39,845 nt of DNA from a virus (lineage: Duplodnaviria > Caudoviricetes): IMG/VR virus record IMGVR_UViG_3300028585_000500, positions 1 to 39,845 of that record; one strand, 5' to 3'. The position numbers and the translations under genes were made by a program. Below the pieces are notes generated by a model, which was given only the letters and a program-made list of their open reading frames with translations, was not told the DNA's origin and did no database searches. Below, piece by piece: positions 3,203 through 33,650 of this stretch (within the stretch, counting starts at the first letter, position 1; each line of letters opens with the position of its first letter).

Positions 3203-4999
3203 ATGCTTAGGCGGAATAGAACTTTATCGATACTTTTTATAGTAATTGGCTCTATTTTTTATGCTGTACTATCGTACATGGTTGGCGCAAACAGCGACAA
3301 CATGTCGTCGCTTCTCATAGCAAAGGATTTAGCAGACGGTAATATCTCTTTATCAGGCTGGCACCTTTCAACTCAATCATATTTGTTTTCGGATATTATC
3401 TGGACTGCTTTGGTTATAAAGGTTTTCGGTTTTAGCCAGATTTTATCTCATGTAATGCCTGCGATATTTTATTCATTCTTCTCATACCTTTCCTTCAGAA
3501 TTGTTTATGAAAAAAACAAGAGCGGGATATTATTAATAGCACCTGTAGTATTGATACCTAGTTTTTTTATCATTGCGAATGCAATAGAGCTTAATATACA
3601 TGGTGGCATATATCTATTATCAATGATATGCCTATATTGCATATCTAAAGAATCATTAAGGTCACCATTAATAAAATTGCTAATAGCATCATTACTATGT
3701 GGTATTTTTGCAGAGTCTGATAAGTTAATTATATTCATTTTTATAATACCCTGCTTCATTTCATCCTCCATACAATTTGCTGTTAAAAGACAAAACAAGG
3801 ATTTTATTATTGCCCTGGCTTGCTGCCTGTCAATAATGGTTTATTTGATATTATCGTTAGCCCTTCCTTCATTTTTCGATTATAACGTTCCAGGCATAGG
3901 CTCTCAGTCGATAGCATCTATTCATGAGATCGCTGGTAACGCAATGCTTGCCATTCAAGGGTTGCTATTATATTTTTCAATAAATTTCGATAGCGACTCA
4001 ATAGGAATAATTATTTCTATTGCAAAAGCTATGCTTTTGATTGTTTACGTTGTCCTTTTTGTAGTTGCAATGGTTAGAGGGTTTGGTAAAAACGCCATTG
4101 ATACACTTCTGATATTTACTACAGCAGTACCATTCGGTGCATTTATTTTTAGCAAAGTCGCTATAGATATTACTTCCACCAGATTCCTTTTTTTCTCTGT
4201 AGTAAGTGCTACTTTGCTCATTGCCAGAAACATAGAGGTTAAATTTAAGGCATACAAAGTATCATTGATTATATTATCTATTTGTAATCTTGCCTGGTTC
4301 TATAACAAGCCTGAAACCGAAGAAGTATATTACTCCAGACTTGGAGACTACTTGCAATCTCAAAACCTTTTAAATGGCTATGGTGAGTTCTGGAAAGCAT
4401 CTATAGTTACAGCAGTTAGTAAGGTTAACATCTACCCAGTAGATACAGATGGCAGCATAAGACCTCGTAACTGGCTTTCAAGAGAAGACTGGTATTCAGG
4501 GAATGGAAATTTCTTCATCTCAAGAGACAGCGGTGAAATTAAAACTGCCATAGATCAGTTCGGCCCCCCATCAAAACATCTTAAGTATCAATCAATGAGC
4601 ATACTTGTTTGGAATGAAATGCCCATGCCTCCACATGGCGTATCTTTTAAGAGGATAAATGAAAATAGTTTGCCATTGCGGAACTATAACATCGATCCTG
4701 ATGGGGGAGTAAGAAGCAATGGGCAACATGGCTTTTTCTTATCCGGGCCTTATGTGAAACTTAATAAGGGACATTACAGAATTATTATGAGCGGCATAGT
4801 GTATTCTGGAAATCCCTATGCGGAAATTTTCTCTGCCAAAAAATCTGTTTCAATAAAGCTTCCATTAAGTAACCTGGGTAATGGTAATATTTTAGATACT
4901 CAAACGTACATTGATAATGATGTTGATGATTTGGAATTAAGATTGAACATTCAAAGCAATGAAGAAGTAAAGTTATACGGTTACACTATTCATAAGTAA
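3203..4999 (+). CDS. Multi-pass membrane protein, GT-C/GtrII-like putative surface-glycan modifying enzyme (moron)
   Basis: About 10-12 hydrophobic segments, NSD loop after TM1, GYGEFWKAS motif, soluble C-terminal GPYVKLNKGHY domain. Visibly AT-rich, opposite strand to its neighbours, in the slot where epsilon15/phiV10 carry conversion genes. Confidence 0.6.
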   Translation: MLRRNRTLSILFIVIGSIFYAVLSYMVGANSDNMSSLLIAKDLADGNISLSGWHLSTQSYLFSDIIWTALVIKVFGFSQILSHVMPAIFYSFFSYLSFRIVYEKNKSGILLIAPVVLIPSFFIIANAIELNIHGGIYLLSMICLYCISKESLRSPLIKLLIASLLCGIFAESDKLIIFIFIIPCFISSSIQFAVKRQNKDFIIALACCLSIMVYLILSLALPSFFDYNVPGIGSQSIASIHEIAGNAMLAIQGLLLYFSINFDSDSIGIIISIAKAMLLIVYVVLFVVAMVRGFGKNAIDTLLIFTTAVPFGAFIFSKVAIDITSTRFLFFSVVSATLLIARNIEVKFKAYKVSLIILSICNLAWFYNKPETEEVYYSRLGDYLQSQNLLNGYGEFWKASIVTAVSKVNIYPVDTDGSIRPRNWLSREDWYSGNGNFFISRDSGEIKTAIDQFGPPSKHLKYQSMSILVWNEMPMPPHGVSFKRINENSLPLRNYNIDPDGGVRSNGQHGFFLSGPYVKLNKGHYRIIMSGIVYSGNPYAEIFSAKKSVSIKLPLSNLGNGNILDTQTYIDNDVDDLELRLNIQSNEEVKLYGYTIHK

Positions 5000-7379: not shown

Positions 7380-7640
7380 ATGAAAAATGACAGTGTGTAC
7401 CACTATCCCGGAAATGATAATTACACGGAAAAATTGTACAGCGATGAAGGAATTAGACGCTTAGCGCAGGATTCAAAAATCATCAGATTGCTTGAAGAAC
7501 TTGAACGCCACGGGAACAACGTAGGCGGCGCGCGGGATGAGGTAAACGCACTGTTTAATTATGTGTCTGCCACAAAGAAGGTCAAAGCAGATATGATTAC
7601 GCACCTTGAATATATGAAAGCCTGCATCGAAAAGGCCTGA
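7380..7640 (+). CDS. ant: SOS-inducible antirepressor (SPC32H Ant-like)
   Basis: 86-aa helical protein with its own LexA-boxed promoter, next to the tailspike as in SPC32H. The repressor in this window lacks an autocleavage domain. Confidence 0.75.
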   Translation: MKNDSVYHYPGNDNYTEKLYSDEGIRRLAQDSKIIRLLEELERHGNNVGGARDEVNALFNYVSATKKVKADMITHLEYMKACIEKA

Positions 7641-7674
7641 CGGTTATTACCTTATTTGATTTATGACCTAAATA

Positions 7675-7691
7675 ATTACTCAAAAGGTAAT
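7675..7691. promoter_or_regulatory. Putative repressor operator
   Basis: ATTACT-CAAAA-GGTAAT, one mismatch to ATTACC-N5-GGTAAT. Confidence 0.5.
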
Positions 7692-24523: not shown

Positions 24524-24730
24524 TTACTGACCCAGCAGCGTTTTATTGCTGGTGTTGGCCTTTGAAGTGTCACCCTGTGAACCAGTCAGCAGAGTTGAAG
24601 CACGTCCGGCAGCAGCACGGCGGCGGCGTTCTTCATCGTCTCGGGCGCTGACAACGGCATCATCCTGCGCCTGTGGCGCGGCCTGAACTTCTGGGGCTGA
24701 CGGTACGGAAGGTTTTGAACCCATGCACAT
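24524..24730 (-). CDS. Small conserved virion-associated protein (gp3-like)
   Basis: MCMGSKPSVPSAP..GRASTLLTGSQGD..KTLLGQ, with AGGAG-type SD. Confidence 0.8.
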   Translation of the reverse strand: MCMGSKPSVPSAPEVQAAPQAQDDAVVSARDDEERRRRAAAGRASTLLTGSQGDTSKANTSNKTLLGQ

Positions 24731-24805: not shown

Positions 24806-24834
24806 TTGACATCAGTTACCATAATGGTAATAGT
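24806..24834 (+). promoter_or_regulatory. Sigma70 promoter with repressor operator in the spacer
   Basis: TTGACA (24806-24811)-17 nt-AATAGT (24829-24834). Operator GTTACC-ATAAT-GGTAAT at 24815-24831. Confidence 0.75.
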
Positions 24835-24839
24835 TAGGC

Positions 24840-25251
24840 CGTGGAGAGAGCTGACATCGACTCACAGCCCGGAGTACCGCAGCAGTTTATTGGGCTTAAA
24901 AGTAAAGGCGGTGGATAAGCCGGGCATCATCCCGGCACCAGATTGAAAGATGCTTATGGAGCCGCGACAAAGTGTGGCGCACTAAGGTGCTAAGTATCTT
25001 TCCATGTGGTGAATGCGGCCAGCGCACGCGGAAGACTGACAAAGATTGCACACAGTCTAAGAGTTTCCGCTCTGGAGTTTGTCAGTTTGACCAGAGCACC
25101 GGGAGGCACCCGGCACCACACATATCAGGCGAGAGCATTTAGCGGGCGTTCAGGAGCGCCACAGAGGCGCTGAGTGCTCTCACCTGATGTGCCGTAGTAC
25201 CGTTATCCATGATGCTGTGTTGATTAGCCCGCCCCGTGCGGGCATTTTTTT
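24840..25251 (+). ncRNA. Putative multi-domain structured non-coding RNA cassette
   Basis: No substantial ORF, four consecutive folded domains with G-U-compatible stems, bounded by a promoter and a terminator. Confidence 0.65.
25227..25251 (+). terminator. Rho-independent terminator
   Basis: GCCCGC-CCCGT-GCGGGC-A-T7. Confidence 0.8.
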
Positions 25252-25264
25252 ACCTGGAGGAATA

Positions 25265-25438
25265 ATGGCAAAGCAAGTTAGCCCGACAGAACAGCGTGAA
25301 GCTGATCAACTAAAATTCCGAGCAAAACTGGATGTTTTATCACAGGTGTTAGCTCGTTCCGCAGATGGCTCTTCAAAGGCGCGCGCTGAAGATTTAGCAG
25401 AAATCATTAATGCCGCATTTGAGAAGATCAACCCTTAA
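25265..25438 (+). CDS. 57-aa helical hypothetical protein
   Basis: GGAGG SD before ATG 25265 (MAKQVSPTEQ...), followed by its own terminator. Confidence 0.7.
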   Translation: MAKQVSPTEQREADQLKFRAKLDVLSQVLARSADGSSKARAEDLAEIINAAFEKINP

Positions 25439-25452: not shown

Positions 25453-25455
25453 ACA

Positions 25456-25480
25456 GCCCGCCACTGAGCGGGCTTTTTTA
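25456..25480 (+). terminator. Rho-independent terminator
   Basis: AGCCCGC-CACTGA-GCGGGCT-TTTTT. Confidence 0.8.
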
Positions 25481-25521: not shown

Positions 25522-26994
25522 TTAGGCGTAGGGATCGTACTCAGTTTCGCTGCGACCCTGCTCATTACTGCCGACATAATGCAGCTTCTTGACTACCGGG
25601 AAGGCGAAAGTAAGCGCCAGTGCGTCAGCATCGTTGGGTGATTTACCCAGGCGCTCTTTGATGCTCACTTTGTCTTCCAGCACAATGCGGCTGTCTTTCA
25701 GCCTGACTTTGTACTCCGCCGCTGATAACTCTTCCGCCACCTGCTGGCTGTCCAGTTGCCCGCCATCCTTCAGCCACGTCTTAACAGCGTTGTACATCTC
25801 GCCGCGTTTGTTCGCCATCTGCGGATCGGTTGAGCCACCGCCGAACTGTATCAGCTGCCAGTTGCGTCCCCAGTTGTCGCCCACAGACTTCAGGCCAGTG
25901 CCATAGCCATAGTCGATGAACACGGCATCAGCGCGGTACTCATCCTCAAACTGCGCGATGGTTTTGGCAAACAGCACGTCATCAGTGGTGCGCTGGTACT
26001 CGCCCAGCTTTTTGGTGTGCAGCCCCTGCCGCAGGTAGATTACCGCCGGGTCACCGCCCTGGTGCGCCGGGTCAACGCCGATGACTGTCGCAGCGTGCGC
26101 CACCTGACCGGGTGTGATCACCCTGCCAACTGCCGCGTCTGTCAGCCCGGTTGGGATGAACTGCGCCTCTGACGCTGACGGGAACAGGCCGCGCACACGG
26201 ACCTTCACAAAGTCGCTGTCTTCGCCATAGTCGTCCACCCATTTCTGAATCTGCTCTTTGTTCGTGCCCTCAACCGAGCGGCTGTCTATCTGTGCCGTCT
26301 TCCAGCGGTGGCGCAACTTGCGGAAACACTCACGGAAGCGACCGGTGTTACGCGTCGGGTTACCGAACGCCACCCAGATAATCTCTGTGTTCTCATCGGT
26401 CAGCGCACCCTCTGCCACTTCCCACACCAGATCGGAGATGTTCGACGCTTCATCGAATACCAGGATGATGCGCTTGCGCTCGTTGTGCAGGCCCGCGAAT
26501 GCCTCGGTATTGTTCTCAGACCATGGGATTGCGTCAGCGCGCCACGATTTGGCGTGAGATGGGTCATTGCTGTAGATAGCGGTAGCGGTGCAGGTGAACC
26601 AGTCCTGTGTGATGCTCAGGCGCTGCCATTTGGCAATCTCTGGCCACGTCTTCGTGCGCAGCTGGTTTTCGGTGTTGGCGGTCACCACCACCTTGCAATC
26701 CTCGCAGGTGTCCATGCCCCACTTCACCAGCATTGAGATAAACGCAGATTTGCCGATACCGTGTCCGGAAGCCCTGCCAATCATCAGTGGCTGGTGCCGG
26801 GTCACAGGGTTCTGCAGGTGTGCACCGATCTGCTTAAAGGCGTCCTCCTGCCACTGGCGCGGACCTTTGGAGTAAGCCAGGTCAGTACCCTCTTCACCCC
26901 ACGGGAACGCATACAGCGCATAGCCAAATGGATCATGCGTGAACGCGCCGATGTCCTCAATCAGTTGCATCTCGAGATCGGCGGCACTACTCAT
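25522..26994 (-). CDS. terL: Terminase large subunit
   Basis: Walker A ASGHGIGKS, Walker B ILVFDEAS, FGNPTRNTG, nuclease IGVDPA..D and SPNDADALALTFA. ATG 26994 preferred over GTG 27003 because of GGTGG SD. Confidence 0.93.
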   Translation of the reverse strand: MSSAADLEMQLIEDIGAFTHDPFGYALYAFPWGEEGTDLAYSKGPRQWQEDAFKQIGAHLQNPVTRHQPLMIGRASGHGIGKSAFISMLVKWGMDTCEDCKVVVTANTENQLRTKTWPEIAKWQRLSITQDWFTCTATAIYSNDPSHAKSWRADAIPWSENNTEAFAGLHNERKRIILVFDEASNISDLVWEVAEGALTDENTEIIWVAFGNPTRNTGRFRECFRKLRHRWKTAQIDSRSVEGTNKEQIQKWVDDYGEDSDFVKVRVRGLFPSASEAQFIPTGLTDAAVGRVITPGQVAHAATVIGVDPAHQGGDPAVIYLRQGLHTKKLGEYQRTTDDVLFAKTIAQFEDEYRADAVFIDYGYGTGLKSVGDNWGRNWQLIQFGGGSTDPQMANKRGEMYNAVKTWLKDGGQLDSQQVAEELSAAEYKVRLKDSRIVLEDKVSIKERLGKSPNDADALALTFAFPVVKKLHYVGSNEQGRSETEYDPYA

Positions 26995-27580
26995 CTTTGC
27001 CACCAGCAGCGGCGCGCTTACGGGCAGCGGCCAGCTTATCAGCCAGGCTGACGTTGATATTAAGCTCCTGCACCTCTTTGAAGGCGCTTACGCCGACGTG
27101 CTTACCGATCAGCTCGAGGTTCTTCACCTTATCTGGCCACTTCACTTTCTGCATGGTCGATTCGATATCCTCTTCGCCGTCACCACCGGCCATGCGGATC
27201 CGGTTGATGTCCATGGCGCTGAGCGATGTGCGCCAGACTTTGGGCCACTGACTGACGGGCTTCAGGCCGCCTTCATCGGTCAGTATGTCGAGCACGTCCA
27301 TCTGGTCGATCTCCACCAGCCGCTTCAGCACGTAATCGGCATCAATCTTTGTCCGGCGGCTACGGGCCTGGCGAAGGTGTGCAATCCGATCCTTTATTCG
27401 CTGGTCAGCCATAAGACGGCTTGCCTGATAAACGGCTGTGTCTGGTGAGTACCCGGCGGCGATAGCGCAGGCTGTCTGGTCGTCAGGGTTTTTCACGTAC
27501 TCCTCGCAGTAGCGCACCATCTGCTCGGTTAGTGGCCTGGTCGATTGCGGCTTGGGTCTATTCGATTGCGGTTTAGGCAT
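26987..27580 (-). CDS. terS: Terminase small subunit
   Basis: YCEEYV..AIAAGYSPDTA..ASRLM, IDADYVLKRLVEIDQMDVLDIL, KVKWPDKVKNLELIGKH. Confidence 0.92.
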   Translation of the reverse strand: MPKPQSNRPKPQSTRPLTEQMVRYCEEYVKNPDDQTACAIAAGYSPDTAVYQASRLMADQRIKDRIAHLRQARSRRTKIDADYVLKRLVEIDQMDVLDILTDEGGLKPVSQWPKVWRTSLSAMDINRIRMAGGDGEEDIESTMQKVKWPDKVKNLELIGKHVGVSAFKEVQELNINVSLADKLAAARKRAAAGGKDE

Positions 27581-27598: not shown

Positions 27599-27615
27599 AT
27601 TACCGTTTTGGTAAT
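27599..27615. promoter_or_regulatory. Repressor operator upstream of terS
   Basis: Perfect ATTACC-GTTTT-GGTAAT. Confidence 0.75.
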
Positions 27616-27997: not shown

Positions 27998-28168
27998 TTA
28001 GCGGGACATTTCACGCCGTGCGTGTGATATAGCTTTCTCCATTCGCTCCAGAGAAGCAGATGGCAGTGGGATTTCTCTTTCGGTGCAAATCTCTTTTATC
28101 AGGCCGTTAGCAATGACCAATTCCTCAAAAAGAGAAGCTATAAGCTCCCTTTGCTCATTCTCGTTCAC
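27998..28168 (-). CDS. 56-aa hypothetical protein, not in the ORF track
   Basis: GTGA overlap with the theta stop, AGGAGG SD, reads [56 protein letters not shown]-stop. Confidence 0.65.
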
Positions 28169-28410
28169 TTTCCTTCCTCCTTCTGATAAACCGGGTCAGT
28201 GCCGCGCGGGTACTGCTGCGCAACGCTCCTGTAATGCTGCAGCCGCTCGCGGAAGTACTCCTTCAGCGCTTCCGGCTGCTGCATCTCCACTTGCATGGCG
28301 ATAACCGGCATATTCATACGCTCCTTGTATACAACTCCTGACGCGGCTAAATCCACGTTAATCCTGTCGCGCTCTTCACGGCTGAGGGCCGCTAGATTAT
28401 GTGATGGCAT
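28165..28410 (-). CDS. holE: DNA polymerase III theta subunit homologue (HolE/Hot-like)
   Basis: [47 protein letters not shown] matches the HolE signature. Start 28410 or 28428. Confidence 0.88.
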
Positions 28411-28421
28411 TTTTTCGCCCT

Positions 28422-28433
28422 GTGACATGTCAC
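28422..28433. repeat. GTGACATGTCAC palindrome, copy 3
   Basis: Extends to the 14-bp TGTGACATGTCACA, between a stop codon and the theta start. Confidence 0.65.
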
Positions 28434-30956: not shown

Positions 30957-31000
30957 GTTACCTCATTGGTTACTATTACCATTTTGGTAATACTTAGCAA
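30957..31000 (-). promoter_or_regulatory. Promoter with two tandem repressor operators
   Basis: TTGCTA-17 nt-AATAGT on minus. ATTACC-ATTTT-GGTAAT at 30975-30991 and GTTACC-TCATT-GGTTAC at 30957-30973. Confidence 0.75.
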
Positions 31001-32604: not shown

Positions 32605-32672
32605 ATTGTTACCTAACTGGTGGCAGTTATCAACCTGTATTACCAATCTGGTGCATTTACCAGAAAGGTAAC
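32605..32672. promoter_or_regulatory. Genetic switch: cro promoter and three operators
   Basis: Minus strand TTGATA (32633-32628)-17 nt-AACAAT (32610-32605). Operators at 32608-32624, 32639-32655 and 32656-32672 (TTTACC-AGAAA-GGTAAC). Confidence 0.7.
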
Positions 32673-32731
32673 ATCGGCTTTAATTGCACCTAAATAGCCT
32701 AATAATCATCAATCATGTATCAGGGAAACAA

Positions 32732-33307
32732 ATGAAGCCGATTTCCGGGATCCGACGGGCAAATCTAATCTATCTGCTTGAGACGCGATTCGAAGGGAAC
32801 CAGACGCAGATGGCGAAAGCCCTGGGTTCACTGCCAAACCTTATCAGCCGCTGGACGCGCGATAAGCCGATGGGCAGCGCAGCGGCGCGCAACATTGAGC
32901 GTGTGCTGAAACTGGAAGATTACTGGCTGGATAACGACCGGGACAATGTGCCGCCCGTCGCCCAGGACGTGGAGATCAGCGACGTGGTTTCGCATAACCT
33001 GCGCCTCTGGATGGACAAATCTGAAGACCTGAAAACACAGGGTAAAGTTCACCGCGCAAGCGGCGTGAACCAGTCAACTGTGGGCCGCGTTCTGAATAAA
33101 GAGATCGACCCCACCATAAGCACTGTTAACTCTATTGCCAAAGCGTTCGGCCGCAATGGCTATGAGCTGCTGATCCCGAATACTGACGCCCGTCAGATCC
33201 AGTATGACCGTGACCTTTATGAAAAGCTGGACCCGGCAGACAAAGAGAAGATCACCAGCTTTATTGAGTTCGTTATCAGCCAGGCACAGAAAGAGTCAGA
33301 TCAGTAA
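32732..33307 (+). CDS. Prophage repressor, two HTH-like domains, no S24 peptidase (SPC32H Rep-like)
   Basis: ATG 32732. RRANLIYLL..NQTQMAKALG..ARNIERVLKLEDYWLD and a second HTH TQGKVHRASGVNQSTVGRVLNKEIDPTISTVNSIAKAFG. Confidence 0.85.
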   Translation: MKPISGIRRANLIYLLETRFEGNQTQMAKALGSLPNLISRWTRDKPMGSAAARNIERVLKLEDYWLDNDRDNVPPVAQDVEISDVVSHNLRLWMDKSEDLKTQGKVHRASGVNQSTVGRVLNKEIDPTISTVNSIAKAFGRNGYELLIPNTDARQIQYDRDLYEKLDPADKEKITSFIEFVISQAQKESDQ

Positions 33308-33420: not shown

Positions 33421-33530
33421 GTTACCATTATGGTATTTTTTTCTTGTGATAACGATTGACACACCCTGAAAAACGCTTATTATTAGCCTCAAGTGTTACC
33501 AATTTGGTAATAGCAAATCGCTCTTTAACA
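33421..33530 (+). promoter_or_regulatory. pL-like early promoter with two operators and boxA
   Basis: TTGACA (33456-33461)-16 nt-TATTAT (33478-33483). Operators at 33421-33437 and 33495-33511. CGCTCTTTAACA boxA at 33519-33530. Confidence 0.8.
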
Positions 33531-33650
33531 ATCCGAAACGGGCAATCACAACCCACAATCTGGCCGCCCACCAGATGGCACGGCTACCCCGTAGAACCGG
33601 AACGCCTGCCCGGAAAGTGAACATCCCTATCCCTTTTTCGGAGACAGATC

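Follow-up and report, generated by a model that had tools for sequence, protein, structure and literature searches.

The closest described relatives of the locus reported here are two prophage leaders of E. coli K-12, dicBF of Qin, which contains DicF (RF00039), and the kilS region of Rac. Both combine the same stem with a terminal small RNA and a unit of the type named C below. In the case of Qin this unit follows dicF (positions 2453-2585 of our Qin locus, L086), and in the case of Rac, KilS follows an R-type stem and precedes the C-type unit. Other phage RNAs are tRNA-shaped and matured by RNase P, as in the case of the C4, CI and CA immunity RNAs of P1, P4 and N15. The dicBF leader is a repressor-controlled polycistronic RNA from which RNase III yields a 190-nt DicF precursor (10.1101/2023.04.14.536235). 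In addition, the anti-sRNAs AgvB and AsxR, 51-60 nt in length, are primary transcripts made behind PR' that counteract sRNAs of the host (PMC4104026).

Here we analyse a non-coding locus in a 39,845-nucleotide stretch of phage DNA (the window). A previous reading of the letters alone (the sequence-only reading) had proposed an early precursor cut into several small RNAs, which it could not assign to a named family. Such an assignment is now possible in part, as one unit is a sub-threshold relative of STnc100 and the array follows the plan of the dicBF and kilS leaders, to which, judged by its sequence, it is kin. We put at roughly 0.6 the probability that the locus is a stand-alone, repressor-linked cassette of five swappable RNA modules that is cut into small RNAs acting on the host. 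DicF, KilS and STnc100 are already known as pieces. For the array itself, motifs A, B and D and the RprA mimicry, no published description was found, a result that is provisional because coverage of subscription journals was poor. The accessible parts of the component literature (STnc100 vesicles, phage sRNA review, RNase III sites, anti-sRNAs, PigU/LrhA) do not describe the array, and those of the Pas preprint describe neither arrays nor epsilon15-type gaps.

The locus and its control elements

The window is that of an epsilon15-like temperate podophage (PHROG annotation; portal with ~71% identity to epsilon15 and SPN1S). Pantoea is the likely host, since one genome of this genus (G212) has the whole cassette at 95% identity and phage AH07 of Pantoea matches module C at 97% identity. 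The cassette (plus strand, ~410 nt, non-coding, five folded modules) lies between the gp3-like gene and terL, and its features are as follows:

24524-24730, minus strand: flanking gp3-like gene (phrog_831; epsilon15 gp3 homologue)
24806-24834, plus strand: sigma70-type promoter TTGACA-17-AATAGT, 10/12 consensus (TTGACA at 24806-24811)
24816-24830, palindrome: predicted phage repressor operator TTACC-N5-GGTAA
24835-24865, plus strand: variable 5' leader, which differs among homologues retaining module A
24866-24913, plus strand: core of module A, a predicted H-type pseudoknot conserved in 28 sequences, with helices P1 (24866-24871/24891-24896) and P2 (24875-24880/24908-24913) and an A-rich loop (24897-24907)
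24919-24940, plus strand: 3' hairpin of module A, GCCGGG/CCCGGC plus ACCA, two pairs with two-sided changes
24945-25002, plus strand: module B, RNase III-type closing stem with a two-hairpin cargo (~24957-24990)
25005-25120, plus strand: module C, STnc100-related tRNA-shaped unit (sub-threshold match to RF02076), with a 7-bp terminal stem (25005-25011/25114-25120) stacked on a 5-bp hairpin (25099-25113) and the crossing helices a (25028-25033/25065-25070), b (25034-25043/25078-25087) and c (25070-25075/25091-25096)
25121-25191, plus strand: module D, long RNase III-type stem with a bulged-hairpin cargo
25192-25251, plus strand: module E, KilS/RprA-like small RNA with an RprA-type seed and an intrinsic terminator (25227-25251)
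25256-25438, plus strand: moron slot, GGAGGA plus a 57-aa orphan ORF (25265-25438)
25455-25479, plus strand: second intrinsic terminator, facing terL
25522-27003, minus strand: flanking terminase large subunit gene terL (phrog_2)

The four domains described previously, A to D, were recovered with all of their quoted stems at the coordinates given, and a fifth module at 25192-25251 had been overlooked. Of the description as antisense between terminase and portal, only the orientation stands, as there is no overlap with gp3 or with terL. For comparison, 79 distinct terL-gp3 gaps were gathered from the best 80 of 244 viral relatives, three named phages and the window; many of them are near-identical E. 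coli prophages, so that the counts given below overstate independence.

The promoter carries the operator in its spacer, as proposed. This operator occurs in six exact copies in the window (0.01 expected), the others lying at 27600 (upstream of terS), at 30976, and at 32657, 33496 and 33828, where they stand on both sides of a repressor-like gene (32684-33307). Within one mismatch it overlaps the promoter in 79 of 79 gaps, each with a TTG[AG]C -35-like motif 5-30 nt upstream, and the epsilon15 GenBank record annotates a repressor site at the equivalent position. We infer that the repressor binds at 24816-24830. The array ends in the expected terminator (stem 25227-25243 and T-run), and the T-runs of both terminators are on the plus strand only.

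In the case of epsilon15 and phiV10 (Uetakevirus), the terminase-gp3 gap is the same slot and likewise contains the operator, the promoter, the terminator and a moron. Module A is present in epsilon15, and the B cargo in phiV10, which carries tRNA-Arg in the position of C. In GenBank, the epsilon15 gap is marked only with the repressor site, an RNase III site and the terminator, and that of phiV10 with spurious-looking ORFs. Two hypothetical proteins annotated antisense over tRNA-Arg and module C, PhiV10p04 (L002:1561-1812) and AH07_39 (L003:2369-2605), are probably spurious. The moron slot holds unrelated ORFs in the relatives, and the 57-aa ORF of the window had no PHROG match and no phage match, its protein search returning only itself. 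In one related gap, the int-alpA RNA motif scored above cut-off in the moron part (L030:2264-2328).

Several other features of the window were seen. A second early promoter (33458-33650), with operators at 33422 and 33496, has a short leader, unlike the lambdoid leaders that contain an RNA array; it has a boxA-like motif at 33519-33531. In the tail region, a small plus-strand ORF (7380-7690; phrog_450, weak anti-repressor match) and a one-mismatch operator (7676-7690) may form an antirepressor unit like that of SPC32H. A 598-aa plus-strand moron beside the lysis genes (3203-4999), of a PHROG of no known function, is possibly a surface-conversion gene, and positions 28165-28428 encode a phage homologue of the DNA polymerase III theta subunit (phrog_1105).

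The layout of promoter, RNA, terminator and moron could also be that of one long cis-acting leader which controls read-through into the moron ORF by antitermination or attenuation, in the manner of HK022 put or of C4/CI. Such a leader would fit the terminator that separates the RNA from an ORF preceded by a strong Shine-Dalgarno sequence, and also the position of the array before early genes in lambdoid phages. However, both the order and the kind of the modules vary freely, relatives have unrelated ORFs downstream, and the phage's own pL has a short leader with a boxA-like motif. Furthermore, Rfam matched neither C4, c4-a1b1 nor isrK in the window, although it finds these families in mEp460, and no icd or ant gene lies downstream. 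The locus thus differs from the C4, CI and CA immunity RNAs, in line with the lack of a C4/CI pattern noticed in the sequence-only reading, and we regard a cis-acting leader as unlikely.

Plus-strand structure and exchangeable stems

Folding z-scores of the whole region were -5.6 on the plus strand and -3.6 on the minus strand; for the single modules the values were -2.4 and +0.35 (A), -5.3 and -3.2 (B), -3.2 and -3.3 (C) and -8.2 and -6.2 (D), respectively. Pairing is kept with covariation in A, B, C and D, with two-sided changes in all four, above shuffled and slid controls. The 12-bp closing stem of B with its two hairpins is 99.6% paired with six two-sided pairs (13 sequences), and the ~23-bp stem of D is 98.6-99% paired with five (11 sequences). 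One-sided changes in B and D left 51 cells as G-U against 4 unpaired, which favours the plus strand. Counting by hand gave three G-U pairs in B, three plus one C-A in the main stem of D and one more G-U in its cap, in agreement with the six G-U versus one C-A from which selection on a plus-strand RNA had been proposed; kept pairing and G-U bias bear this proposal out.

Alternatively, the stems might belong to the late mRNA of the minus strand (terS-terL-gp3-portal), providing it with sites for RNase III processing or for stability amid the packaging genes, and the plus-strand promoter might serve the moron only. This would agree with the RNase III site that the epsilon15 GenBank record annotates here on the late-gene strand, with the folding of B, C and D on the minus strand too (z -3.2 to -6.2), and with an RNase III consensus that is near-palindromic. 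Yet besides the G-U bias, A folds on the plus strand only, and the tRNA-Arg, the terminators and the RIL-seq reads described below are all plus. Lambdoid phages, moreover, keep the modules sense to the early leftward leader, far from the packaging genes. A role in the late mRNA is therefore very improbable in our view.

At the gathering threshold, Rfam gave no match in the window and only tRNA and int-alpA in 20 related loci, and ARAGORN found 0 tRNA genes in the window. Protein coding was rejected, as the ORFs that cross the modules lack conservation and the phages tolerate the loss of 34 nt of cargo. In public RNA runs, the best share of the sequence words was at most 0.16; the four inspected were contigs, one of them clearly genome-wide, and are thus uninformative about expression, strand or ends.

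That the modules are separable, as suggested before, is seen among the related gaps as exchange, reordering and loss of cargo. One stem scaffold, found in 74 of the 79 gaps, carries 16-17 unrelated cargo types. In the gaps, long stems take turns with tRNA-shaped units, and ACAAC and GTTGT motifs mark the joints. The unit after the stem is tRNA-Arg(UCU) in 55 gaps, C-type in 10 and other in 14, and the tRNA-Arg slot and C share a GTTGTGG junction. In two of eight close relatives (L007 and L009) the stem of B is kept and its 34-nt cargo deleted. The B cargo is present in 896 of 5426 E. coli genomes, the D cargo precedes C in the early leaders of lambdoid phages, and both cargos persist across genera in different scaffolds. 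The stem-unit junction was found in 24 species-level genomes, of which 23 belong to Enterobacterales as judged by their titles, and array parts in 31 of 75 Pantoea-genus genomes. The sole match outside Enterobacterales, in a Geobacteraceae MAG contig (L374), is probably mis-binned.

With regard to the cargos, the DicF hairpin is found in 61/79 gaps and absent from the window (Rfam E up to 10, and pattern), the model finding both DicF and KilS. The cargos of L016, L026 and L162 and DicF-like hairpins in many gaps have CU-rich, anti-Shine-Dalgarno-like exposed loops, which suggests that there are base-pairing small RNAs among the cargos. A CsrA-sponge function, considered for the GGA in the D loop, was rejected because the homologue loops are UUCG-like or GGC.

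The stems were scored with a published RNase III consensus (PMC4357697). In the Qin leader it predicts a cut at L086 2251/2252, ~190 nt from the DicF terminator end; this matches the RNase III-dependent 190-nt DicF species, the match of the coordinate numbering being our reading. The Qin stem has the same scaffold, with an ACAAC...GTTGT base, an internal loop, a 10-12-bp upper stem and the mapped cut, so that the RNase III-type character proposed for the stems has a counterpart in a homologous stem. Module D of the window reaches 6/7 on each arm. Module B has 5/7, a score that 1210 of 39836 positions in the window attain and that is weak by itself. Among stem clusters, 58 of 82 reach at least 6/7 at the predicted junction, against 41 of 5000 random positions; the 82 include ~15-20 opposite-strand duplicates or false stems, come from junction loci selected partly by the stem, and are not a count of families. 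Unlike dicBF, the array of the window is stand-alone between terminase and portal, lacks ydfABC/dicB and carries A, B and D.

Modules A and C

Over 28 sequences, 99.2% of cells in A are paired (P1 99.4%, P2 100%). Two-sided changes occur in three pairs, two in the 3' hairpin and one in P1. Since P2 shows G-U changes only, an H-type pseudoknot plus hairpin is likely, not proven; a rival rod fold requires hairpin sequence that is missing from half the homologues. The GCCGGG/CCCGGC-ACCA end of this domain was correctly recognised at first, and its extent (24840-24940) was not, as the conserved part is 24866-24936, with the predicted pseudoknot in it. The 48-nt core, loops included, is near-invariant across Pantoea, Salmonella and E. 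coli phages, and is retained where the 3' hairpin is swapped (L481, L482). Of 5426 E. coli genomes, 15 contain it, and the 12 rows listed show no annotation for it. A covariance model of A gave 0 matches in 151 Enterobacterales genomes, with 29 candidates scored per genome and no positive control. A loop-anchored metagenome scan returned 72 stretches, mostly chance, and its true A homologues contained no two-sided P2 change.

Module C is a relative of STnc100. The match to RF02076 reaches 29.3 bits (E 2.3e-4; gathering cut-off 47) and spans model positions 31-147 only; the tail and terminator (148-206) are absent, and module D follows instead. C has the STnc100-type terminal UGGUG/CACCA stem with the GAGGCAC hairpin; STnc100 and its relative PasD share with it this stem, the CCGGGAGGCACCCGG hairpin and the sequences of helices b and c. 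It differs from STnc100 in its 5' hairpin, and the Rfam structure is drawn without a pseudoknot. In the case of C, a chain of three mutually crossing helices was recovered in 13/13 divergent representatives, and 0-10 of 200 shuffles did equally well, for a topology chosen after inspection of the same sequences. Helix b has six two-sided pairs; most rows were found by searching with the 3' strand of helix c and the 3' hairpin, so that covariation there is uninformative. These helices survive wholesale sequence change.

From the cloverleaf-like unit described at first, the closing stem and the tRNA-shaped frame remain, and the simple cloverleaf gives way to the crossing helices. The tRNA consensus was not found in C: the hairpin loop AGGCA is not a T-loop, and only the 7+5-bp stack is tRNA-like. 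A tRNA-Arg nevertheless occupies the same slot in relatives, in line with the tRNA-like character noted before. This interchange and the stack make it likely that RNase P trims C.

Their invariant loops and pseudoknots suggest that A and C bind proteins. A more specific version would make decoys or sponges against host defence of the pseudoknotted modules, such as type III antitoxin mimics, tRNA decoys or binders of immune signals. Compact pseudoknots, invariant loops, the early promoter, the interchange with tRNA and a hypervariable cartridge layout beside a moron slot would all suit such decoys, and LrhA homologues regulate CRISPR-Cas (PMC10810281). On the other hand, deletion of rprA in Serratia was without effect on CRISPR-Cas (PMC10810281), no module is tandemly repeated in the window, and no ToxI/AbiQ-type antitoxin or CRISPR repeat was matched by Rfam at E up to 10. 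Among the 14 Rfam matches at that level, none assigned A or C to a type III antitoxin, riboswitch or ribozyme family, in a search by covariance models, which can miss pseudoknot-rich families. Altogether we give decoys and sponges little credence and retain the reading as a processed array of small RNAs.

Module E, RprA and the proposed mechanism

The seed of module E, TGCTGTGT (25213-25220), agrees in every letter with RprA nt 62-69 of E. coli and of two Pantoea genomes and is retained in 7 of 8 close relatives. In RprA, the region including these nucleotides pairs with csgD and ydaM (PMC3465796). KilS of Rac and RprA (RF00034) likewise have this seed upstream of a terminator; E is fused directly to the final terminator and lacks the long hairpin of KilS. 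The identity to RprA is only 8 nt in the window and up to 20 nt in other arrays. KilS-type modules in L367, L369, L373, L245 and others have 14-20 nt identical to the RprA 3' seed region and are better candidates for testing mimicry.

Prophage PP10 of EPEC E2348/69 has the same gap and contains module A; its tRNA-like slot is annotated pseudo-tRNA-Gly. Hfq RIL-seq recovered two plus-strand species from it, ending at the two terminators and always as RNA2 (PMC8550237). The seed-bearing one was ligated to the lrhA leader (2528233-2528300) in 59 fragments from 3 libraries (Tables S3, S5, S6), and RprA captures the same segment with 63 and 116 fragments. The second species (L393:2590-2700; record 2837262-2837365) ends at the final terminator, forms chimeras to cfa, perC, purA and yfiD, and is an unnamed sRNA candidate in Table S6. 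Among the rows looked up in the tables of the same paper, none was for the A-, B- or tRNA-like modules of PP10.

With the EPEC lrhA leader, the PP10 seed, RprA and E of the window can each form 11 contiguous pairs. Energies of the whole duplex separated neither window E (180 of 300 shuffles were as good with EPEC lrhA) nor RprA itself from shuffles and were not counted as support. In two Pantoea genomes the 11-bp site of lrhA is not clearly conserved, with 7-9 bp elsewhere in the leader. From the sequence match, module E likely imitates host RprA; by analogy with PP10, it likely binds Hfq and pairs via its seed with RprA targets such as lrhA. In contrast to AgvB and AsxR, with which the array shares its phage origin, a conserved scaffold with a variable part and a moron site (PMC4104026), E would copy a host sRNA seed, inside a processed array.

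The 3' part of the PP10 homologue was Hfq-bound in uninduced cultures, which puts early-only expression in doubt; some of this RNA must stem from leaky or internal promoters or from spontaneous induction. KilS possibly has its own promoter (PMC8175672), so that terminal modules need not arise by processing. One could go further and consider only the terminal Hfq small RNA, and the tRNA where present, to be functional, with A-D as processing or stability scaffolds or recombination debris. The experimentally supported array products are indeed all terminal (DicF, KilS and the PP10 3' species), and the B cargo is missing in 2/8 close relatives. Debris or mere scaffold would be at odds with the near-invariant core and loops of A in phages of Pantoea, Salmonella and E. 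coli, with the three crossing helices of C, which outlast wholesale sequence change, and with the persistence of the B and D cargos across genera in different scaffolds. We hold such a restriction to be unlikely.

According to the preferred reading, release of the repressor would give one ~410-nt transcript from the operator-overlapped promoter, and homology to dicBF suggests that this transcript is likely divided into individual small RNAs with effects on the host. RNase III would cut stems B and D near 25004/5 and 25184/5, or on the cargo side of D at ~25141/2, and RNase P likely trims C at the 7+5-bp tRNA-like stack. Released E would likely bind Hfq, its seed pairing with RprA targets such as lrhA, and A and C, both compact pseudoknots whose loops hardly vary, would, more speculatively, likely have proteins and not mRNAs as their partners. 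Overall, the cassette would be a multiplexed small-RNA operon that tunes host physiology on infection or induction.

DicF, KilS and STnc100, studied as isolated prophage RNAs, are thus indicated to be cartridges of one modular repressor-linked array. This type of array spans Enterobacterales prophages and escapes gene callers and, for the most part, Rfam. As the epsilon15-like array lies apart from essential genes, it is cleanly deletable and its function directly testable. In addition, module A is a near-invariant, likely pseudoknotted RNA for which no description was found, and module E is a tangible example of a phage RNA that likely imitates a host sRNA, a homologue of it being backed by RIL-seq. 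As a tentative extension, temperate phages of Enterobacterales may share a general, recombination-shuffled RNA cartridge system whose casings release cargos that include copies of sRNA seeds and protein-binding pseudoknot aptamers. RNase III stems and tRNA-shaped frames would be the casings, from which host nucleases would free dozens of different cargo RNAs. If this were true, A and C would bind host or defence proteins, and such arrays would be the RNA counterpart of anti-defence gene hot spots.
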